A stretch of DNA of 34,977 nt from an uncultured Gammaproteobacteria bacterium (lineage in GTDB: Bacteria > Pseudomonadota > Gammaproteobacteria > UBA9214), in contig CAWHCQ010000018.1 of NCBI GenBank assembly GCA_963827755.1, positions 1 through 34,977 of the forward strand, in the 5' to 3' direction. The stretch's first letter is position 1, and each line of letters starts with the position of its first letter. Both the position numbers and the translations under genes were made by a program. The notes below the pieces were generated by a model. The model ran no database searches. It saw only the letters and a program-made list of their open reading frames with translations, and was not told where the DNA came from. Of the stretch, positions 1 through 26,052 are shown piece by piece.

Positions 1-547
1 GTCGCTCTGCCCATAGTAGGACGGGTAAAGCGCAGCGTACCCGTCAGGGGCAGGCTGTTGAACCCGGAGTTAGGGCGCATTTTTTGATGGGTACGTCGCT
101 TTGCTCCTTTACCCATCCTACGTGTTGCTCCTGCTCATAGTAGGACGGGTAAAGCGCAGCGTACCCGTCAGGGGCAGGCTGCTGAACCCGGAGTTAGGGC
201 GCACTTTTTGATGGGTACGTCGCTTTGCTCCTTTACCCATCCTACGTGTCGCTCTGCTCATAGTAGGACGGGTAAAGCGCAGCGTACCCGTCAGGGGCAG
301 GCTGTTGAACCCGGAGTTAGGGCGCACTTTTTGATGGGTACGTCGCTTTGCTCCTTTACCCATCCTACGTGTCGCTCCTCGCTCATAGTAGGACGGGTAA
401 AGCGCAGCGTACCCGTCAGGGGCAGGCTGCTGAACCCGGAGTTAGGGCGCACTTTTTGATGGGTACGTCGCTTTGCTCCTTTACCCATCCTACGTGTCGC
501 TCTGCTCATAGTAGGACGGGTAAAGCGCAGCGTACCCGTCAGGGGCA
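1..547. repeat. Tandem BIME/REPIN-like array of ~123-125 bp units, each with two inverted GTAG-type REPs (probably continues beyond the window start)
   Basis: GTAGGACGGGTAAAGCGCAGCGTACCCGTCA starts at 16, 140, 263, 388 and 511. The first four are followed by the inverted partner TGATGGGTACGTCGCTTTGCTCCTTTACCCATCCTAC. Linkers are near-identical between units. Confidence 0.9.
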
Positions 548-557
548 TATGCATGCC

Positions 558-1577
558 TCAGAGCATCCCCTGCAATTGTGACCAGACCTTCTTCGGACCG
601 ATGGTCTCGTAACAGGCGGGATAGACCGGGGCATCGCCTGCAAAGCTGCATTGCTTGCCGAGACAGGGTGCGCACGGGAACTGCGCCTGCAGGCTGTACC
701 TGTGACTCGCCGATCGTCCCGGTCAGGCCGGGATCGGTCGAGCCATACAGGGTAATACACGGAGTCGCCAGCGCTGCGGCCAGGTGTACCAGGCCGGTGT
801 CCACGCCGACGACACCGCTTGCCGCTGGCAATCACGCCGGCAAGTTCACCCAGGCCCATGCGCGGCAAGACCTCGATGGCCGCGTCGAGGGCGGCAATCT
901 CGCTGGCGCGCTGCTGTTCAGCGGCATTGCCCCACGGCAGCTTCACCTGCAGACCCTGCCGGACCGCCATGGCCGCCAGCTCGGCGCCAGTAGGTATCCG
1001 GCCAGTGCTTGCTTGGCCAGGTCGTGCCATGCAGGAATACCAGGTAGGGCTGGCGTTCGCCAGCCTGGAATTTCCCCCTGATGCCGTAGTCCGGTCCGCT
1101 TGCGGGCACGGTGTAGCCCAGTGCCGCTGCAAACAACTGGCGCACCCGCAGCACGGCATGCTGATCACGCGCGACTGAAATGGTACGGTTATAGGCGCGG
1201 GCCGCCAGTGGTTCGCGGGCACTGTCGCGGTCGAGACCGGTGCGCGGGCCACGGGCAAAGCGGGAGATCACGGCACTCTTGACCAGGCCCTGGGCATCGA
1301 TGATCTGCTCATAGTGCTGCCTGCGCAGATGCTTCACCGCCGCCTGCGGCTCGCCGACACGCAAGACGTGAAACGGCCGGTGTTTCCAGCGCCGCAACGC
1401 CACCGGAATAACCTCGTCGACGGCCGCGTGCCATGCCGGCACCTCGGCGAAGGGCTCCTCCACGACCCAGTCAAAGCGGATGCCCGGGAGTTGTTGCGCG
1501 GCATCCGTCACGGCCGGCAGGGTGTGCAGCACATCGCCCAGGGAAGACGTTTTGATGATCAGTACGCGACGGGGCAT
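558..1577 (-). CDS. waaC: LPS heptosyltransferase I (frameshifted at ~985, ~825, ~695)
   Basis: N-terminus RVLIIKTSSLGDVLHTLPA..FDWVVEE. Motifs continue across frames: HGTTWPSKHWP / LPWGNAAEQQRA / GVDTGLVHLAAAL / VWSQLQGML* (TGA at 558-560). Adjacent to waaF. Confidence 0.85.
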
Positions 1578-1589
1578 GGCCGGCCTGTC

Positions 1590-2606
1590 TCAGCGAGACA
1601 TGACCTCCTGCATGGCCGTGTTGATCCGCTCCGGTGAAAGCCGCTTCAGACAATGCAAATGCCCCAGCGGACATTCGCGCTTGAAACAGGGACTGCAATC
1701 AAGGTCAAGGCGCTCGATCTGTGCAGTCTCGGACAGCGGCGGCGTGAAGGCCGGGTCTGAAGAGCCGTAGATGGCCACCATCGGACGCTGCAGTGCGGCC
1801 GCGATATGCATCAACCCGGAGTCGTTGGTGAGCACGAACGAAGCCAGCGCCAGCAGGTCAATCGCGTCCCCCAGGCGGGTAAGGCCGGCAAGGTTTTCGC
1901 AGAGACTCCCGGTGATGTTATTGATGTTTTCGCACACCGCCCGGTCATTGGCCGAGCCAAACAACCAGACGTCCCAGCCTTTCTCCAGCCATACTTTTGC
2001 GACCTTTGCATAATGTTCTTCCGGCCATTTCTTTGCCGGGCCGAATTCCGCCCCGGGGCAAAGCGCCAGTACCGGTGTGCCGTCATAACGAATATCGAGA
2101 GCCTGCAGCGCCATACGCGATTGCGCCTCGCTGGTCACCAGCCCCGGCCTGGGCGCCGGCCCTGACAGTTTCGCCCCCTCGGGCAGGCCGAGCGCAACAA
2201 AACGGTCCACCATCATCGGCAAGCGCCGGCGGTCGAGTTTTCTGCAGTCGTTGATAAACCAGTGCCGCAGCTCCCCGATATAACCGGTGCGCAGTGGAAT
2301 ACGCGCCCAGAAGGGCAGCAGGGCGGACTTCAGCGAGTTCGGCAGGATGATGGCCTGTGCATAGCCCCTGTCACGCAGCTGCATACCGAGGCGGCGACGC
2401 ACCCGCAGCTTTAGTTCGCCGTGACCCAGCGGCATGTCGATGGCATCGCGCACCTCCGGCATGCGCTCCAGCAACGGCAGGGTCCAGCCAGGCGCCAGCA
2501 CGTCGATCGCGCGGTCCGGTTTCTGCGCCTTGAGCACCTTGAACAGGCTCTGGGCCATCACCATGTCACCGACCCAGGCCGGGGCGATGATGAGGACGCT
2601 AGTCAC
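1590..2606 (-). CDS. waaF: LPS heptosyltransferase II
   Basis: APAWVGDMVMAQSL, CPGAEFGPAKKWP, NDSGLMHIAAAL, CSPCFKRECPLGH. Confidence 0.95.
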   Translation of the reverse strand: MTSVLIIAPAWVGDMVMAQSLFKVLKAQKPDRAIDVLAPGWTLPLLERMPEVRDAIDMPLGHGELKLRVRRRLGMQLRDRGYAQAIILPNSLKSALLPFWARIPLRTGYIGELRHWFINDCRKLDRRRLPMMVDRFVALGLPEGAKLSGPAPRPGLVTSEAQSRMALQALDIRYDGTPVLALCPGAEFGPAKKWPEEHYAKVAKVWLEKGWDVWLFGSANDRAVCENINNITGSLCENLAGLTRLGDAIDLLALASFVLTNDSGLMHIAAALQRPMVAIYGSSDPAFTPPLSETAQIERLDLDCSPCFKRECPLGHLHCLKRLSPERINTAMQEVMSR

Positions 2607-2679
2607 AGGCCGGTTCGGTAATGATGGAATATCCAGATTGCGTCACTAGAGTTCCTTAAGTTGAATTCAAATCCGCTAA

Positions 2680-2913
2680 TGCTCCTAAAAAACGCATCAC
2701 CACCTGTAGGAGCGGATCGCATCCGCGATGCCCCTGCATGAACCCCAATCGCGCTTGAGAAGCGCTCCTACAGGGGACGGTCAGACTGTAGGAGCGGATC
2801 TCATCCGCGATTATGCCCCTGCTCCTAAAAAACGCATCACCACCTGCAGGAGCGGATCTCATCCGCGATGCCCCTGCATGAACCCCGATCGCGCTTGAGA
2901 AGCGCTCCTACAG
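2680..2913. repeat. REP cluster (GTAGGAGCGGATC..ATCCGCGA family) with a ~94-bp direct duplication at 140-bp period
   Basis: 2680-2773 is nearly identical to 2820-2913. Each has GYAGGAGCGGATC..ATCCGCGAT ... TCGCGCTTGAGAAGCGCTCCTACA, and an extra single REP lies at ~2788. Confidence 0.85.
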
Positions 2914-2934
2914 TGCAAGAAATACCGCGGCGGC

Positions 2935-3855
2935 CTAAACCACCGTCAGCCAGTCCTTATGGGCCGTCTCGCGGCCGTGGACAATGTCAAAATACAGGGA
3001 CTGCAGGCGTTCGGTCACCGGTCCGCGTCCGCCGTTGCCGATGGTGCGGTCATCCAGTTCGCGGATGGGGGTTACCTCGGCGGCGGTGCCGGTAAAGAAG
3101 GCCTCGTCCGCCAGGTAGACCTCGTCGCGGGTAATGCGCTTCTCGCGCACCGTCAGCCCTTCACTCCCGGCCAGCTGCACGATCGTGTCACGGGTGATGC
3201 CTTCCAGCGCCGAGGTCAGCTCCGGCGTGTAGATCACGTTGTCGCGCACGATAAAAATATTCTCGCCACTGCCTTCGGCGACAAAGCCGTCCACATCGAG
3301 CAACAGGGCCTCGTCATAGCCGGACGTCAATGCCTCGTTAAGCGCCAGCATGGAATTGATGTAATTGCCATTGGCCTTGGCCTTGCACATGGTGATATTC
3401 ACATGATGCCGCGTGTAGGAGGAGGTCTTGATGCGGATACCCTTCTCCATGTTATCGGCACCCAGGTAGGCGCCCCATTCCCAGGCAGCGACTATACCGT
3501 GCACCTTCAGATTATCCGCGCGCAGGCCCATGCCTTCCGAGCCGTAGAAAAACATGGGCCGGATATAGGCGGATTCAAGACCGTTTTCGCGCACCACTGT
3601 TTTATGCGCTTCACTGATCGTCTCCCGGTCCCAGGGCACCGGCATCTTCATAATATGCGCCGAGCCGAACAGGCGCTTCGTATGCTCCTGCAGGCGAAAA
3701 ATTGCCGTGCCCTGTTCGGCCTTGTAGGCACGCACGCCTTCGAACACGCCCATGCCGTAATGCAGGGTGTGGGTGAGCACATGGACCTGCGCCTCACGCC
3801 AGGGAACCAGTTTGCCATCCATCCAGATGACACCATCACGATCAGCCATAGACAT
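2935..3855 (-). CDS. ilvE: Branched-chain amino acid aminotransferase
   Basis: THTLHYGMGVFEGVRAY, KAKANGNYINS, EGSGENIF, LEGITRDT, FFTGTAAEVTPI. Start placed at MSMADRDG because GGAGA lies upstream (ORF track starts at 3882). Confidence 0.95.
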   Translation of the reverse strand: MSMADRDGVIWMDGKLVPWREAQVHVLTHTLHYGMGVFEGVRAYKAEQGTAIFRLQEHTKRLFGSAHIMKMPVPWDRETISEAHKTVVRENGLESAYIRPMFFYGSEGMGLRADNLKVHGIVAAWEWGAYLGADNMEKGIRIKTSSYTRHHVNITMCKAKANGNYINSMLALNEALTSGYDEALLLDVDGFVAEGSGENIFIVRDNVIYTPELTSALEGITRDTIVQLAGSEGLTVREKRITRDEVYLADEAFFTGTAAEVTPIRELDDRTIGNGGRGPVTERLQSLYFDIVHGRETAHKDWLTVV

Positions 3856-3920
3856 ACTGTTGTTCTCCAGAACCATTTCCAAAATTTTTCATCGCCGGCC
3901 CGTTAACCCCGGTGGTATTT

Positions 3921-4036
3921 GCAGGAGCGAGCGTCGGCTGGCGATTTTTTTGCGAGATGTTCGCCGATGTTCGCCAGCTGTTCGCCAGCTGGCGCTGGCT
4001 CCTACAATAATTAATAATTGATAATTAATAATCAAT
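3921..4036. repeat. REPIN-like element (GTAGGAGCCAGCGCCAGCTGGCGAA family) plus an AT-rich 7-mer microrepeat
   Basis: GCAGGAGCGAGCGTCGGCTGGCGA ... TTCGCCAGCTGGCGCTGGCTCCTAC, followed by AATAATT AATAATT GATAATT AATAATC. Confidence 0.75.
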
Positions 4037-4047
4037 TTACCCGCCGG

Positions 4048-6973
4048 TTAATCACTGCCCATGTGTTTATCCCAGATGCGTGCCACGGCACCCCGGTGTT
4101 CGGACAGTTCATCATGCCCCACCAGTGGCGGCTCATCCTGCAACGCAAGGTGATTAACGCGGTGCCGAAGGGCGCTATAGGCCGCCGTCAACGCCGCGAC
4201 ATCGTCATCCGCCATCAGGCCGCACCGGGCAAAGGCCTGCAGCAGGCCATTATTGTGGGTATAGCCGAGTAATTCAGTATGGCTTGCGGACCAGGACAGA
4301 ACGCCCCATTGAACCATAAATTCCATATCCACGATACCGCCCCTGCCATGCTTCAAATCGATCATATCCCCGCTCGACTTGTCGAGCTCCTGTCGCATAC
4401 GCTCGCGCATTTCCACGACGTCCCTGCGCAATTTCCCTGCATCGCGCGGCCGGGCCAGCACGCCGGCACGTACACGCTCGAATTGCCGTGCCAGTTCCGC
4501 ATCGCCCGCAACCACACGCGCCCTCACCATGGCCTGGTTTTCCCAGGTCCAGGCACTGCGCCGCTGGTACTCGGCGAAGGCCTCGAGACTGCTGACCAGC
4601 AGGCCGGATGAACCGTTCGGCCGCAAACGGGTGTCCACTTCATAGAGGATGCCGGAGGAGGTATAGGTATTCAGGATATGGATGATTCGCTGGCCGAGCC
4701 GGGTAAAGAATTCGTGATTATCAATCGCCTTCGGGCCGCTGGTCAGCTGGTTCTCACCCTGGCTGTCATGCAGGAAAACGATATCCAGATCCGAGCCGTA
4801 GCCCATCTCGGCACCGCCGAGCTTGCCATACGCGGCAATGGCGAAACCGGCCTCACGCTTCTTTCCCAGTGCAACATAGCAGGGCCGTCCATGTCGTGAC
4901 ACCAGTATTTTCCAGGCAAGCGCCAGTGCATGCTCAAGCGCCACTTCGGCAATACAGGTCAAATAATCAGCAACGCGCTCCACCGCAAAGCCGGTAACAA
5001 TATCGCTTGCCGCCACGTGCAGCACATTCGCCTGCTTGAACTGCCGCAGGCAATCCATTTGCTGTTCCAGGTCATCGCCCTCGATGGCCGACAGCTGGGC
5101 CGTCAATACCGATTGCAAGACCCGCCTTGTCGAGCGGGGCGTAAAGGGAACGCGGATCAAGCAGCTCATCAAGCAGCAGCGGGTACTGTGCAAGCAAGTC
5201 GGCAATCCAGGCGCTGGCCGCACACAACTGTATCAGTTGCGACAACGCCATCGGATGCTCGACCAGCAGGGAAAGATAGGTGGTACGCCCGGCAATCGCT
5301 TCCAGCAGCTCGCCGAGGCGGGGCAGTATTTGCAAGGCATCTTTTTCCGCGGCAACCGCGGTCAGCAGCAGGGGCACCAGTTCGTCCAGCCGTTGCTGCC
5401 CCTGGTCACCGAGAAAGCGTGTTACCGGGCCATCGCGAAAGCTGTCCAGCCACTGCAGCACCTCATCCGCCTGCTGGAAACCGGCCTGCTTGAGCACCTT
5501 GATGGCCGCATCACCGCCAAGCGTACCCTGCCAGACCGCCTTCAGATCCGATGCCTTGCGCGAGCGCCTGTCCTGCACATCTTCCTCCGAGGATGCAAAC
5601 ACCTGTTCAAAATGTTCCTGCACCAGGCGGCGATGCCGGGCAAGGGTTTTCTCGAACTGGTCCCGGTCCGGGAAACCCATGGCGAAGGCGAGGCGGATCC
5701 TGCCGATATCATCGTCGGGAAGTTCGTGCACCTGCTGGTCTTCCCAGGCCTGCAGGCGGTTTTCCGTGCGGCGCAGGAACACGTAGGCCTCGGCCAGCTG
5801 CAGGGTCACGTGTGCCGGCAAATAACCGAGCACCGCCAGTGCATCCAGCACCTGCAGGACGCCGCGCTGTCGCAGGGACGACTGGCGGCCGCCGCGCACC
5901 AGCTGGAAGGCCTGCGCGATAAACTCGATTTCGCGAATGCCGCCGGGGCCGAGCTTGATATTGTCCTGCATACCCTTGCGCTCGACCTCGCGCACGATTT
6001 GTTCCTTGAGATTGCGCAGCGACTCGAAGGCCCCGAAATCGAGGTAGCGGCGATAGACAAACGGCCGCAACATGGTTATCAGCCGAGTGGCCGGCCCCTG
6101 CGGTCCGGCCACCGGCCGCGCCTTGATCATGGCGTAACGCTCCCACTCCCGGCCCTGCGACTGGTAGTACTCGGCCATGGCATCAAAATCAGCGACCAGC
6201 GGCCCGCTGTCGCCATAGGGACGCAGACGCATATCGACGCGAAACACAAAGCCGTGTTCGGTGTGGTCATCCAGCACCTGGATCAACTGCTGGCCCAGCT
6301 GCGAATAAAATTCTTCCGCGCTTTGGCGGGCACGCCGCCAGCCGGTCGGGTTATCAGGGTAGGCAAAAATCAGGTCGATATCGGATGAAAAATTCAGCTC
6401 GTGCGCGCCCAGCTTGCCCATGCCCAGCACCACCAGTTCAGGTGATATTTTCTTCGGCACCCCCGGTTGCCTCAAAGCCCATTTGCCAAGCAGCCCGAGC
6501 GCCCCGCCGATACTTGCATCGGCCAGCGCGGTAAGGTCACCAAGCACTTCGCCCAGCGGCGCCCAGCCGGCCAGGTCGCGCCAGGCGATGCGCAGCATCT
6601 CCCGCAAACGGTTCTCGCGCAGCACCCGTTTGAGGGTTTCTTCATCGCTGACACCATTGAGACGCTGCTCGAGTTTCTGCCGCTGCTCATCGGCGCGGTA
6701 ATCCGTCAGCAGGTCACCGCTCTCCAGCAGGCCGGACAACAGGGATGGGTCACGGATACAGGCCTGTGCCACAAATTCGCTGCAGGCCCAGACGCGCAGC
6801 ATACTGGTGGTGAAATCCGGCCGGCGGGGTATCGGCAAATTCTCCGCGTGGGCCGCCTCGGTATAGGCCTCCCAGGACTTGCCCAGCTGGTCGTTCAGCG
6901 CCTCCGGCAGCACATCCGACAGCTGCCGGTTGATGGCCATCGACCTGTGTACCTGGTTCAGGATAGAGGTCAT
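4048..6973 (-). CDS. glnE: Bifunctional glutamine synthetase adenylyltransferase/adenylyl-removing enzyme (frameshift ~5120)
   Basis: Two nucleotidyltransferase domains (GMGKLGAHELNFSSDIDLIF; YGKLGGAEMGYGSDLDIVF) plus RVDMRLRPYG and EVDTRLRPNG, split between ORFs 5072-6973 and 4048-5223. Confidence 0.93.
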
Positions 6974-12256: not shown

Positions 12257-12339
12257 GCCACGGAAGCACACGGAAATACACGGAAGAAAACCTGAATAAT
12301 GAATGGTTATTCTGTGATTATGAGGGGTGTTTCCGTGGC
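12257..12339. repeat. Triple-CACGGAA motif with a partial inverted partner
   Basis: GCCACGGAAGCACACGGAAATACACGGAAGAAAA (12257-12290) is the exact reverse complement of 26018-26051; TTTCCGTGGC at ~12330. Confidence 0.8.
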
Positions 12340-19065: not shown

Positions 19066-19380
19066 ATGGCCACGGAAGCACAACGGCATAGACCACGGAA
19101 GAGCAAGGAATCACATACGGTTCGCGCACGGTTCGCGAGCTCGCGCTCGCTCCTACGGTGAATGCACAGTGCCTTTCATCTCAGGATTCAGCCCCACCGC
19201 GACATCAGCGACCTGCAGGAGCCAGCACCAGCTGGCGAATTGATCGTGCACTGTTCGCGAGCTGACGCCGCTCTGCAGTTATCACAAAGCCCGGTTCATT
19301 ACCATCGATCAGCTTTATACATGCAGCATGGGCAGCAATCTTTATTTTTCCGTGTTCTTCCGTGGCTTCCGTGGCCATTA
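19066..19380. repeat. Inverted pair of CACGGAA motifs enclosing degenerate GTAG REPs
   Basis: ATGGCCACGGAAGC.. at 19066 and TTTATTTTTCCGTGTTCTTCCGTGGCTTCCGTGGCCATTA at 19341-19380. Internal TCGCGCTCGCTCCTAC and GCAGGAGCCAGCACCAGCTGGCGAA. Confidence 0.75.
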
Positions 19381-21991: not shown

Positions 21992-22164
21992 AATGGCCAC
22001 GGAATCCACGGAAGAACACGGAAAAATAAAACCCTTTCCTTTCAAAAACAAATTTCCTTTGACGATACAACGCGCCATCAAACAATCACTGTATCGCGCC
22101 TTAAGCTCCACCTACAAGATTTTTTTATATTTTTCCGTGTTCTTCCGTGGATTCCGTGGCCATT
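21992..22164. repeat. Gene-less MITE/REPIN-like element with perfect 37-bp inverted CACGGAA arms
   Basis: AATGGCCACGGAATCCACGGAAGAACACGGAAAAATA (21992-22028) and its exact reverse complement (22128-22164), 99-bp spacer. Confidence 0.9.
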
Positions 22165-22199: not shown

Positions 22200-23130
22200 T
22201 TACGCCTCATTATCAAGAAACCACCGATACGTGCTCCTGATCCCCTCCTCCAGGGAAATCCCGGCCCGCCAGCCCAGGCCATTGATCCTCGAGGTATCCA
22301 CCAGTTTACGCGGCGTGCCGTCCGGCTTGCTGGCATCGTAGACAATTTCCCCTTGATAACCAATGGCTTGCCCTACAAGCGCGGCAAGGTCAGCGATGGA
22401 GATATCCTCCCCGACCCCGATATTCACAATGCCCTCACCGTCATAATGCTCCATCAGGTAACAACAGGCCGCCGCACAGTCATCGACATGCAGAAACTCC
22501 CGCAGCGGCTTGCCGGTCCCCCACACCGTCACCGTCGGCGCATTCGCCGCCTTTGCCTCATGAAACTTGCGGATCAGTGCCGGCATGACATGGGAGGATC
22601 TCCAGGTCAAAATTATCTTCAGGCCCGTAGAGATTGGTCGGCATGGCCGAGATGAACTTGCAGCCGTACTGCCGCTGGTAGGCCTGGCACAGCTTGATGC
22701 CGGCAATCTTGGCCACCGCATACCACTCGTTGGTCGGCTCCAGCGGCCCGGTCAGCAGGTAGTCCTCCTGCAGCGGCTGCGGCGCCAGCTTCGGGTAGAT
22801 GCAGGTACTGCCCAGAAACAGCAACTTCTCCACACCCGAGAGCCGCGCACTCTCGATCACATTCGCCTCGATGATCAGGTTCTGGTAAATGAAATCAGCC
22901 GGGAACTCGTTATTGGCCAGGATCCCGCCGACCTTGGCGGCTGCCAGAAATACATAATCCGGACGCTCACGCTCAAAGAACGCCCGTACCGCCGCCTGGT
23001 TCCTGAGATCCAGTTCCTTGCTGGTCGCGGTCAGGAGGTTGTCATAGCCTTCGGCCTGCAACCGCCTGACAATCGCCGAACCCACCAGGCCGCGGTGCCC
23101 GGCTACGTAGATTTTTGCTTTTTTGTTCAT
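22200..23130 (-). CDS. fcl: GDP-L-fucose synthase (frameshift ~22600)
   Basis: [50 protein letters not shown]; [26 protein letters not shown] in the second frame. Confidence 0.93.
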
Positions 23131-23136
23131 TTTATT

Positions 23137-23730
23137 TAATGGCCACGGAATCCACGGAAGGACACGGAAAAATAAAAACAATTCAATTCTGTCATAGAAC
23201 AACTCGTTTTACGCTGGCCTTGGGAAAGGCGAAATTAACAAGCATGCCCAGATGCAGACCGGTGGCTTTCAGATAATTCAACAACTGTGCCTTGCTGGCT
23301 TGGGGTAAATTCTGCTGTGCCTTCAACTCAAGAATTATGCATCTCTCCACAACAATATCCGCAAAGTACTCACCAACCACTACGTTCTTGTATTGAACAG
23401 TTACCGGAACCTGGGCCTCTGCCCGCAACCCCTGCAACTCCAGCTCCGCCAACAAGGCCTTCTCATAAACCTTCTCGAGAAAACCACACCCCAACTGCCT
23501 GTAAACCTCAAAAACACAGCCCTGTATAACATAACTAATCTGCTCTTCCTGTAGCATCAAAAATCCCTCCATGGACTAAATTAAATTCTGAACAACCTCC
23601 TTACACTTATCCAGTAGCAAAATATCAATCTATACCCAGAAAACCAGATTAATAGATTTATTTTTTAGATTTACTTGATGATTTATTGATTTTATTTTTC
23701 CGTGTCCTTCCGTGGATTCCGTGGCCATTA
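23137..23730. mobile_element. Putative element: GxxExxY gene bounded by perfect 41-bp inverted repeats
   Basis: TAATGGCCACGGAATCCACGGAAGGACACGGAAAAATAAAA at 23137-23177 and its exact reverse complement at 23690-23730. Mobility is inferred, not shown. Confidence 0.55.
23192..23557 (-). CDS. GxxExxY family protein (PD-(D/E)xK-like nuclease fold)
   Basis: [14 protein letters not shown] (GxxExxY), ADIVV..IILELK, QLLNYL; ~121 aa; GGAGG upstream of ATG 23557. Confidence 0.9.
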
Positions 23731-23801
23731 TATATTTTCCTTGTTCGGATAAAAACGTTACGCCTATAGTTGGCACATCAAGCAGTTATATGGCCTTGTA
23801 C

Positions 23802-24170
23802 CTACGGATAGTATTTAACATCAGGCAAGCCCTTAAAGTCTGCATCCTGTGTCCATATCACAGCACTAAATTTTCTTGCCGTAGCATAAATAATGCTATC
23901 TGCCAGTGGTAACTTGTTATCCAAACCATAGACAGCCGCATCAATAGCCAGGGCACTATCAAGCGGCACAACCTTTCCTTGCTCCATATGAGCAATTGCC
24001 TCCAGCGCTACGTCTTCGCCCCTTTGGCGCATGATGCATTTGAATACTTCTGTGAGCGTAATACTCGGAACCAGCAATTCGTCAATGGCCTCTATTGGCC
24101 TGGCAAATGTGCCGGCATTCTTGTCACCTGCAAAATAAGACAGCCATGCTGACGAATCAACAACATTCAT
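23802..24170 (-). CDS. Type II TA toxin, VapC/PIN domain
   Basis: VVDSSAWL, ITLTEV, LPLADSIIYATA, WTQDADF acidic PIN motifs; ATGA overlap with the antitoxin. Confidence 0.9.
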   Translation of the reverse strand: MNVVDSSAWLSYFAGDKNAGTFARPIEAIDELLVPSITLTEVFKCIMRQRGEDVALEAIAHMEQGKVVPLDSALAIDAAVYGLDNKLPLADSIIYATARKFSAVIWTQDADFKGLPDVKYYP

Positions 24171-24373
24171 ACCCTGTCCTTATCCCTCTTTACACGGGTA
24201 TCTATCCCCTTCAGGAAACCCCTCATCTTTTTCATAGGCTGGATAGGTATCAATTCAATTCGATTGTGATAAGTCAGGATCTGTATTTTCTGACCCGAAA
24301 CGATCCCCATCGACTCCCGGACTGCTTTAGGGATAACGACCTGAAATTTTGGCGAAACTGTTACAGATGTCAT
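24167..24373 (-). CDS. AbrB/MazE/SpoVT-family antitoxin
   Basis: VTVSPKFQVVIPKAVRESMGI; 68 aa; GGAG RBS; directly upstream of the PIN toxin. Confidence 0.88.
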   Translation of the reverse strand: MTSVTVSPKFQVVIPKAVRESMGIVSGQKIQILTYHNRIELIPIQPMKKMRGFLKGIDTRVKRDKDRV

Positions 24374-24405
24374 TGATATAACTCCATCGATACAGGTTAC
24401 GTACA

Positions 24406-24434
24406 ACGCTATACCTATCGATAGGAAGCGTCAA
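24406..24434 (-). promoter_or_regulatory. Putative TA promoter with palindromic operator
   Basis: Minus strand TTGACG-N17-TAGCGT, with the perfect palindrome CCTATCGATAGG (24414-24425) in the spacer. Confidence 0.55.
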
Positions 24435-24509: not shown

Positions 24510-24590
24510 GATTTTATTTTTCCGTGTCCTTCCGTGGATTCCGTGGCCATTAGTTTTTTACATTTTTATTCTTCCGTGTGCTTCCGTGGC
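24510..24590. repeat. CACGGAA-motif copy identical to 23688-23730, plus a partial second copy
   Basis: GATTTTATTTTTCCGTGTCCTTCCGTGGATTCCGTGGCCATTA (24510-24552); CTTCCGTGTGCTTCCGTGGC (24571-24590). Confidence 0.9.
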
Positions 24591-24621: not shown

Positions 24622-25730
24622 TCACTCATTATAATCAAACGTCCGAAACCCCTCCCGCTTGCACAACTCATCCCGCTCCGCAATCTTCAGATCCTCCCTG
24701 ACCATCTCCGCCACCATCTCATCCAGGGTAATCTCCGGCACCCACCCCAGCTTCTCCCTGGCCTTGCTCGAATCACCCAGCAGCGTCTCCACCTCGGTCG
24801 GCCGGAAATAGCGCGGATCGACTTCCACCCGCACCTTGCCGCTATCCTCCTCGATACCCTTCTCTTCAATCCCTTCGCCTTCCCAGCGCAGCGTAATACC
24901 CACTTCCTTGCAGGCCGCATTGACAAAGTCACGCACCGAGTACTGCACGCCCGTGGATATACAGAAATCCTCCGGCTCATCCTGCTGCAGCATCAGCCAC
25001 TGCATCTTCACGTAATCCTTCGCATGCCCCCAGTCACGCTTGGAATCCAGGTTGCCGAGATAGAGCTTGTCCTGCAGCCCCAGCTTGATACGGGCCACTG
25101 CACGGGTAATCTTTCGTGTAACAAAGGTCTCGCCACGCACCGGTGATTCATGGTTGAACAAAATCCCGTTACAGGCATAGATGCCATAGGCCTCGCGGTA
25201 ATTGACGCAGATCCAGTAGGAATACATCTTGGCAACCGCATAAGGACTGCGCGGATAGAAAGGCGTCGTCTCCTTTTGCGGAGTCTCCTGGACCTTGCCG
25301 AACAACTCACTGGTGGATGCCTGGTAGAACTTTGTCTTCTTCTCCAGACCCAGAATCCGGATCGCCTCGAGCAAGCCGCAGCGTCCCCAGCGCATCGCAG
25401 TTTGCCGTGTATTCCGGCGTCTCGAAGGAGACCGCCACGTGACTCTGCGCCGCCAGGTTATAGATCTCATCCGGCTGCACCTCCTGAATAATCCGGATCA
25501 GGTTGGTCGAATCGGTCAGGTCGCCATAATGCAAAAAGAAGTGGACATCCTCCTCGTGCTGGTCGTGGTACAAATGATCAATACGATCGGTATTAAACGA
25601 TGACGCCCGGCGCTTGATGCCATGAACGATGTAGCCCTTGCTCAAGCAGCAGCGCCGCAAGATAGGCCCCGTCCTGCCCGGTAACCCCGGTTATCAGCGC
25701 CACCTTCCTGTTTTCTGTTTGATTACTCAT
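24622..25730 (-). CDS. gmd: GDP-mannose 4,6-dehydratase (frameshifts ~25650, ~25380)
   Basis: [74 protein letters not shown]. Confidence 0.95.
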
Positions 25731-25816: not shown

Positions 25817-25872
25817 TGTAGGGTCGAATTCATTCGACCGATCTCGATTGGTCGAATGAATTCGACCCTACA
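25817..25872. repeat. REPIN: perfect 23-bp inverted GTAG REP pair
   Basis: TGTAGGGTCGAATTCATTCGACC-N10-GGTCGAATGAATTCGACCCTACA. Confidence 0.88.
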
Positions 25873-25963
25873 AGTATAAGCTGTTGCCCAGATTGCCTCC
25901 AAAAATCAACATTTCAGGGTTAAGTTCTTCAAGAGCGACGTGCGACCATCGACGCAATAGATC

Positions 25964-26052
25964 TTATTTTTCCGTGTCCTTCCGTGGATTCCGTGGCCAT
26001 AACTATCTTGTAAATTTTTTTCTTCCGTGTATTTCCGTGTGCTTCCGTGGCC
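25964..26052. repeat. Two tandem CACGGAA-motif copies (reverse orientation)
   Basis: TTATTTTTCCGTGTCCTTCCGTGGATTCCGTGGCCAT (25964-26000) and TTTTCTTCCGTGTATTTCCGTGTGCTTCCGTGGCC (26018-26052). Confidence 0.88.

Follow-up and report, generated by a model that had tools for sequence, protein, structure and literature searches.

GxxExxY nuclease genes and heptad-built hairpins: a candidate gene-repeat pairing in uncultured Gammaproteobacteria and beyond

In an uncultured gammaproteobacterium of the lineage UBA9214, a gene for a GxxExxY protein with the PD-(D/E)xK nuclease fold lies between fcl and gmd, enclosed by inverted arrays of a seven-nucleotide word, and similar arrays occur without the gene as dispersed hairpins. 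The best single account of this arrangement may tentatively be a pairing of nuclease and cognate hairpins, comparable to that of repetitive extragenic palindromic (REP) elements with REP-associated tyrosine transposases (RAYTs). The unit is located on contig C18 (CAWHCQ010000018.1) of assembly GCA_963827755.1 (2.85 Mb, 52 contigs, 92% complete, GC 57%), and the window referred to below is this entire contig of 34,977 bp. The assembly is the source genome (G000) within a genus set of 37 genomes, itself included.

Anatomy of the boxed gene

The gene is enclosed by 50-nt inverted arms that are 96% complementary; their exact core of 41 nt is the one described in the original prediction, which had been made from the letters of this region alone (coordinates are given in Table 1). 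Each arm consists of the prefix GCC, three phased copies of the heptad CACGGAA with the spacers TC and GGA between them, and the suffix AAAAT. The double-heptad pattern is present 14 times in the window, compared with an expectation of 0.21, and none of 100 shuffles reached 14. The arm-bounded unit measures 594 bp and is AT-richer than its surroundings, as had also been noted, with a GC content of 0.30-0.50 in its interior versus 0.58-0.62 for fcl and gmd. The dinucleotide TA reported at both outer ends is present, but it belongs to the repeat consensus TAATGGCC and demonstrates no target duplication; a duplication looked for at the element ends was not seen. Inside the arms, the GxxExxY gene is the sole open reading frame (ORF) with a family match and may to that extent be called a lone gene, but the gap between fcl and gmd also contains a VapBC cassette, a third copy of the exact 41-mer and an arm of a second type. 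Neither a sigma-70-like promoter in the leader, which separates the right arm from the start codon, nor a promoter-like site elsewhere inside the element was detected. The window yields no Rfam match at the gathering score, the unit being placed between fcl and gmd and not in 23S rRNA, and it holds no Y1/HUH gene, in agreement with the absence of HUH enzymes that had been claimed.

The encoded protein comprises 126 aa from the first ATG and 121 aa from the second methionine. It matches TIGR04256 (2.3e-40, 137.6 bits, cut-off 35) and PF13366 (PDDEXK_3; 4.4e-40, 137.1 bits, cut-off 22), the latter being the sole Pfam match of the boxed gene. G30, E33, Y36, D72, E82 and K84 are invariant across 78 aligned sequences, from which an AlphaFold2 model with a pLDDT of 95.4 was obtained. 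The top Foldseek match of this model is Cas4 SSO0001 (4ic1; E 1.9e-4, TMq 0.58), followed by Hjc resolvases (E 1.3e-3), while VIA-align gives Z scores of 10.2 for 4ic1 (3.1 Å, 98 residues), 8.5 for R.SwaI and 7.9 for Hjc 1gef (84 residues); a sequence search of solved structures with the same protein returned no chain at E<=1. The core fold is thus predicted to be in common with Cas4 SSO0001 (4ic1) and with archaeal Hjc (1gef, 2wcw), whereas the two N-terminal helices of the GxxExxY motif occur in this family alone. As modelled, the fold corresponds to a generic minimal nuclease core, which assigns no function to the protein, and the PF13366/PDDEXK_3 entry of a survey of PD-(D/E)xK families from 2012 gives its function as 'Unknown' (PMC3424549).

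Protein clades and their heptad words

GxxExxY genes are present in 17 of the 37 genus genomes. Heptad-built inverted repeats flank 16 of the 22 places in the genus where the family is found, the remaining six being at contig ends, broken or divergent. These genes fall into four or five clades, each of which has its own heptad word: CACGGAA in clade I (G000_C18, G003, G006, G008 and G051), CACAGAG in clade IV (G004, G016 and G021), CGCAGAG in clade III (G050, G002 and G044) and CGCAAAG/CGCCAAG in clade II/IIb (G012, G046, G018 and G000_C10). Two further genes, G006_C43 and that of G007, were assigned to clade IV by eye, have short or unclear flanks and stand outside the tree. On a tree of 56 proteins, built by a quick maximum-likelihood method, the 19 heptad words require 25 changes, compared with 42-45 in ten of 200 shuffles, and the word is kept in clusters that cross phyla; the G000_C10 gene, for instance, falls into one cluster with loci of Verrucomicrobiota, of Desulfococcus and of a delta-proteobacterium. 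The co-variation of protein and motif that the original prediction had proposed to look for is therefore found, in that the word changes with the clade.

Because gene and arms are linked, a match between clade and word is by itself no proof of recognition. A stronger point is that, within one element, the roughly six copies of the word remain similar to each other, whereas the spacers diverge. The CGCAGAG-clade gene of G002 (L029, contig C3) has lost the catalytic D and carries Q in place of K; as it possesses its own arms, yet its genome holds three cognate doublets in all, the arms travel with the gene. The source genome contains a second GxxExxY gene on contig C10, which is 43% identical to the first and has arms of the other word, CGCAAAG/CGCCAAG. 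Adjoining this C10 gene (L001, positions 1880-2860), hairpin units built of CGCAAAG/CGCCAAG are repeated in tandem about 7-8 times, with a period of about 105 nt.

Insertion between fcl and gmd

The gene-plus-arms unit is an insertion, because the corresponding gap in sister species may be empty, filled or occupied by a hairpin alone. In G017 the two genes are separated by about 36 nt with nothing in between, which provides the empty allele that had been sought; in G006 the gap consists of arms and gene, in G008 of second-subtype arms and gene, and in G007 of arms around an unrelated filler and no gene. The gap of G002 (125 nt) holds an unrelated GC-rich hairpin. Arms, gene and VapBC together are found in G000 and G003, the latter with MazEF too, and the gap of G013 contains two other small ORFs and MazEF with an arm. 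The site is in addition a toxin-antitoxin hotspot, with VapBC in the source genome and G003, MazEF-like genes in G003 and G013, and arms between them (L005, L007).

Homologues in other phyla

Beyond the genus, 80 loci from many phyla were collected, both flanks being available in 74. At 45 of these 74 the flanking inverted repeat is better than in all 30 shuffles, so the expectation that homologues would generally be flanked in this way holds beyond the genus. Nearly all such arms are arrays of words of 6-8 nt at a spacing of 8-10 nt, among them CACAGAT, ACAGGAT, CACGAAT, CGCAGAT and AACGATA. Direct repeats of at least 2 nt outside the arms are absent from 41 of the 45 arm-bounded elements (fraction with none in the control, 0.897), and these 41 show no target duplication. 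Where the neighbouring genes are co-directional, according to crude ORF calls, the GxxExxY gene shares their direction at 42 loci and runs counter to it at 6.

Gene-less hairpins

In the source genome, arms built of two or more exact heptads number 49; they form 16 convergent pairs and leave 17 arms unpaired. The loops of the 16 pairs range from 11 to 528 nt, and the C18 pair is the only one to enclose a gene with a family match. Two arm subtypes are distinguished, both with the same heptads, the GCC prefix and an A-rich suffix; their spacers differ, the heptads being spaced by 9 and 10 nt in one and by 10 and 10 nt in the other. Different arm types may also stand side by side as a mosaic in intergenic gaps. 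Of the gene-less copies that the original prediction had listed near the gene, the one at 21998-22158 is clean, whereas partial decay is seen in the other two, at 19066-19380 and 12259-12339. It had interpreted them as non-autonomous copies of an autonomous element: the dispersed gene-less hairpins do share the arms, but their loops are unrelated to the gene element. Since nothing but the arms is held in common, the gene-less elements are not simple deletion derivatives, and that origin was rejected. At one such hairpin (C13:128142-128206), G012 is without about 180 nt spanning the hairpin, the junction being too diverged to define the ends.

Excision was looked for in public reads, the best run containing 0.15 of the sampled words of the locus, and four runs were aligned. 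The apparent joints across 23156-23697 were rejected as excision junctions: they match over 18-40 nt per side, have other short loops between and come from other organisms, that is, they represent other hairpin copies. In three sediment metagenomes and one metatranscriptome library, the summed contig depth is about 100-4800 on the arm stretches (23135-23201 and 23671-23737) versus about 0-40 on the gene, and the hairpin is very common in sediment communities.

The four PF01797 (Y1_Tnp) genes of the source genome either lie 62 kb or more from the nearest CACGGAA doublet or are on doublet-free contigs; a RAYT may nonetheless act in trans on CACGGAA hairpins. Throughout the genus, Y1_Tnp genes are found in 33 of the 37 genomes, mostly as open frames of 230-270 aa.

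Surroundings of the unit in the window

The features of the window are collected in Table 1. The two-arm composite at 24512-24588 is found again at 25956-26049, beyond gmd. The frameshifts in fcl and gmd were judged against intact orthologues from sister species, protein identity being 87-93% in the stretches that flank the breaks, and may be those of real pseudogenes or assembly indels; pairwise overlap is also seen among several further long ORFs of the window. Additionally, a perfect palindrome at 25820-25873 (GTAGGGTCGAATTCATTCGACC...GGTCGAATGAATTCGACCCTAC) represents a separate REP-like family with about 141 core matches genome-wide, some copies of which are nested in the loop of a CACGGAA hairpin (C33:5044-5598).

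Table 1. Positions of the boxed GxxExxY gene, its arms and other features in the window
Feature	Position	Strand	Remarks
Left arm	23133..23182	+	Exact 41-mer 23137-23177; heptads 9 and 10 nt apart; 8 nt from fcl start codon
GxxExxY gene, PD-(D/E)xK fold, 126 aa	23192..23572	-	Profile matches; D72, E82 and K84 intact
AT-rich 112-nt leader, right arm to start codon	23573..23684	-	
Right arm	23685..23734	-	Exact 41-mer 23690-23730
VapC (PIN), 23802-24170, and MazE/AbrB-type antitoxin, 24167-24406	23802..24406	-	Second cassette, between two same-oriented arm copies
Third exact 41-mer, 24512-24552, then two-heptad second-subtype arm, 24572-24588	24512..24588	-	
fcl (GDP-fucose synthase type epimerase)	22200..23121	-	Insertion flank; one frameshift near 22600
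gmd (GDP-mannose 4,6-dehydratase)	24622..25690	-	Other flank; two frameshifts (25375-25386; about 25635-25690)
Gene-less hairpin 3' of fcl	21998..22158	.	Clean pair, two arms, 109-nt loop
Gene-less element	19066..19380	.	Left arm decayed, right arm intact (19348-19373)
Second-subtype arm, three heptads, 10,10 spacing	12259..12339	.	Single heptad opposite

The proposed pairing and the evidence on both sides

The 594-bp unit belongs to a large and widespread class of hairpin-bounded cassettes that behave like mobile DNA, in which the loop between two inverted arrays of phased heptads is occupied by a gene for a stand-alone PD-(D/E)xK nuclease. The central observation is that of clade-specific words repeated within each element. 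Taken with the intact catalytic residues, a single gene next to many gene-less doublets and the lack of target duplication, it makes a REP/RAYT-like pairing of the nuclease with cognate hairpins the best single account, though we put its probability somewhat short of even. Under this proposal, the GxxExxY protein would recognise the heptad word of its own arms, each of which offers three sites at intervals of roughly one helical turn, and would cut at or near the folded or paired arms. Host replication or repair would then copy or move the arm-bounded unit, leaving no target duplication, and gene-less hairpins with like arms would use the enzyme in trans. The gene, which has no evident promoter of its own, would be read within a gmd-vapBC-GxxExxY-fcl transcript.

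The abundance of hairpins was counted in the genus genomes, which are related to one another, mostly metagenome-assembled and in many cases incomplete, and these counts are descriptive only. For CACAGAG (threshold, more than 30 doublets) the cognate gene is present in 4 of 9 arm-rich versus 1 of 28 arm-poor genomes; for CGCMAAG (more than 40 doublets) there are 5 intact and 2 broken genes among 12 arm-rich genomes versus 1 in 25; and for CGCAGAG (more than 20 doublets) the figures are 2-3 of 5 versus 1 of 32. For these three of the four words, then, the cognate gene is over-represented among arm-rich genomes; CACGGAA, the word of the window, is the exception.

That the number of CACGGAA hairpins does not follow the gene weighs against the proposed pairing. 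Above 40 doublets, the clade I gene is found in 4 of 22 arm-rich versus 1 of 15 arm-poor genomes. As many as 14 of the 22 CACGGAA-rich genomes have no GxxExxY match of any kind, so the motif is abundant without the gene, a finding that the original prediction had named as one that would count against it, and six of these 14 (G010, G013, G015, G023, G045 and G048) are at least 90% complete. One of the six, G023 (95% complete, 20 contigs), is without a GxxExxY gene and carries 93 triple-heptad arms, mostly in near-identical compact hairpins with an arm offset of 50 nt; a PF05635 gene is also absent there. Of 20 hairpins sampled from this genome, six lie inside an element of about 205 nt with its own terminal repeats GTAACTATTCAGC (L118, L123, L125-L128), and five of these six elements are flanked by 8-bp direct repeats. 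The 8-bp duplications indicate ordinary, transposase-driven spread of what is a miniature inverted-repeat transposable element (MITE), and as the hairpin sits in the middle of this MITE as cargo, part of the gene-free hairpin abundance is hitch-hiking in other repeats. In addition, each clade is represented by at most a single gene in any one genome, and several of the genes (G008_C14, G017_C2, G044 and G002) are broken or degenerate. The boxed architecture, moreover, needs no nuclease, because genes of the four-helix-bundle family PF05635 are boxed alike: they occur in 3 of the 37 genomes, and two of them are enclosed by inverted arrays of a 9-nt GAAGTGA/GAAGTTA unit (L138, G012:C7; L139, G052:C13). 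A PF05635 search of the source genome, which is 92% complete, found none. Finally, we know of no route by which a nuclease alone would complete transposition.

As to the driver of the G023 MITE, its terminal inverted repeat begins with GTAA and its duplications are of 8 bp; inverted repeats beginning with GTAAGCG and 8-bp direct repeats are given for the IS66 family in the source consulted for it (PMC11946415), but the sole IS66 transposase locus of G023 is without that terminal repeat when up to 3 mismatches are allowed. Some second-subtype copies in G023 are surrounded by an additional outer inverted repeat. On a Leptospirales contig (L095, 729-1290), a GxxExxY gene together with its CACAGAG arms lies inside an outer repeat, GTAACTACTCAGCT, that is nearly identical to the terminal repeat of the MITE and is accompanied by a direct repeat of about 7 nt.

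Alternative explanations

Three other explanations, an RNA-level, a passenger and a homing role, are kept in play by the hairpin populations of gene-free genomes, by the parallel with PF05635 and by the bias in gene orientation. The arms may act in RNA, in the manner of an intervening sequence (IVS): as a stem of about 45 bp in the operon transcript they would be cut by RNase III or by the encoded nuclease, which would free the GxxExxY message and spare the neighbours polarity, the spread at the DNA level being due to other means. This is regarded as unlikely, although several observations point towards it. In the predicted minimum-energy fold of the sense-strand RNA (-220 kcal/mol, z -8.7, 20 shuffles), the closing stem is formed by the arms; the element is devoid of a detectable promoter-like site; the gene runs with co-directional neighbours in 42 cases versus 6; PF05635, which is the IVS ORF family, is boxed alike in the genus; and the IVS of Coxiella is described as a 28-bp terminal stem around a small ORF, cut by RNase III (PMC4990558). 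Phased, clade-specific heptads, however, are not needed by an RNase III stem, and of the 20 gene-less hairpins of G023, 7 are placed between convergent and 5 between divergent genes. Among 8 co-directional cases, the strand capable of G-U pairing is the sense one in 3 and the antisense one in 4, a single case being undecided; this comparison is of low power, given the mismatches shared within subfamilies and the crude ORF calls.

Somewhat less probable again is that the hairpins are an independent REP-like family, moved by other enzymes or kept by the host, whose loops the GxxExxY gene merely tolerates or prefers, with no recognition of the arms. The plentiful and uniform arms of gene-free genomes, the nesting of some hairpins in a MITE that has its own terminal repeats and is flanked by 8-bp duplications, the Y1_Tnp genes in 33 of 37 genomes, the mosaic of adjoining arm types and the toxin-antitoxin cassette between arms would all be accommodated in this way. 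It does not explain that four or five words match four or five clades, in the genus and across phyla, that the heptads are kept while spacers differ, or that the G002 gene has arms of its own in a genome with three doublets; the Y1_Tnp genes of the source genome, moreover, are not near CACGGAA doublets. Linkage alone could yield the match between clade and word, but it would not account for the identity of the six heptad copies within an element. A homing-like process is held to be improbable; its targets would be gene-less hairpins, which the nuclease would cleave, and repair on the template of an occupied copy, through the 41-50 nt of arm homology, would copy the gene into the loop. It would fit the position of the gene, which is always in the loop, the absence of target duplication, the sporadic distribution and broken copies typical of the life cycle of homing genes, and the greater abundance and wider distribution of hairpins relative to the gene; but 1 of 16 hairpin pairs is occupied in the source genome, no genome has two intact genes of one clade, and the multiplication of the hairpins is left unexplained. 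The least probable, and one to which we give little credence, is an integron-like cassette array in which the arms serve as crossover points for the gain, loss and shuffling of GxxExxY, VapBC and MazEF. Different small cassettes separated by arms do occur between fcl and gmd in different species (G000, G003 and G013), and VapBC and gmd are each bracketed by arm copies of equal orientation. Against it, an integrase was not seen at the locus, no integrase search having been made, hairpins elsewhere are mostly solitary and compact, and the arms match the GxxExxY clade and not the other cassettes.

Comparison with known systems

The preferred REP/RAYT-like pairing has its closest parallel in REP elements and their hairpin-forming doublets (REPINs), which are paired with a RAYT gene, also called TnpA-REP, an HUH enzyme of the Y1 type (PMC3116915, PMC3337134). 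As with RAYTs, GxxExxY genes occur in at most one copy per clade and genome and have their own repeats inverted around them, there are many intergenic inverted doublets without the gene, each gene clade has its own repeat word, and target duplication is absent. REPIN populations are described as outliving the loss of the RAYT and decaying slowly (10.1101/2021.07.10.451892), and the repeats discussed here can likewise be present where the gene is not. The differences are that a RAYT is an HUH tyrosine transposase (PF01797), whereas the present enzyme is a PD-(D/E)xK nuclease; that a REP is a single palindrome, whereas these arms are made of 2-4 phased heptads; that RAYTs are described as mainly vertically inherited, whereas the GxxExxY gene-plus-arms unit moves between phyla; and that the abundance of the CACGGAA repeat does not track the gene.

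The IVSs of 23S rRNA with an S23p/PF05635 ORF are similar in that a small ORF is boxed by terminal repeats that form, in the present case as predicted, a long stem in the transcript, and, according to the same description, in being AT-richer than the host and sporadic, with an ORF prone to decay (PMC4990558). The GxxExxY unit differs in lying outside rRNA, in its nuclease ORF, in its arms of phased heptads and in its many gene-less copies. Finally, insertion sequences (ISs) with DDE transposases and their MITEs also have gene-carrying and short gene-less forms bounded by terminal inverted repeats. Unlike these, the GxxExxY element is without a transposase, the GxxExxY gene being the only family-matched ORF inside the arms, and without target duplication (41 of 45); beyond the arms, its gene-less forms have nothing in common with the gene-carrying one, and the MITE of G023 carries the hairpin as cargo. 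In the full-text literature, subscription journals lying outside the coverage, no account of such a gene-hairpin pairing was found, and GxxExxY gene-plus-hairpin units are apparently undescribed in print.

Implications for the GxxExxY family

A wider generalisation may be drawn, which we consider doubtful as it stands: GxxExxY proteins would be the enzymes of an unrecognised class of mobile DNA spanning many phyla, in which a stand-alone PD-(D/E)xK nuclease of about 120 aa reads a short word repeated once per helical turn in two inverted arms, can change its specificity as that word evolves and mobilises hairpin cassettes together with host repair, with neither transposase, recombinase nor target duplication, the four-helix-bundle IVS proteins being a parallel second driver. 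The genus described here is a good test bed, as it offers four or five gene-word pairs, a polymorphic insertion site and gene-free genomes that bear hairpins.

GxxExxY/PF13366 is a very common protein family. If each clade recognises its own arm word, the family would gain a substrate and a large class of intergenic hairpins of environmental bacteria would be explained. A third type of enzyme would then stand beside the DDE and HUH transposases that are tied to miniature repeat elements, and its members would be small nucleases with naturally varied 7-base specificities, which would be of practical interest.
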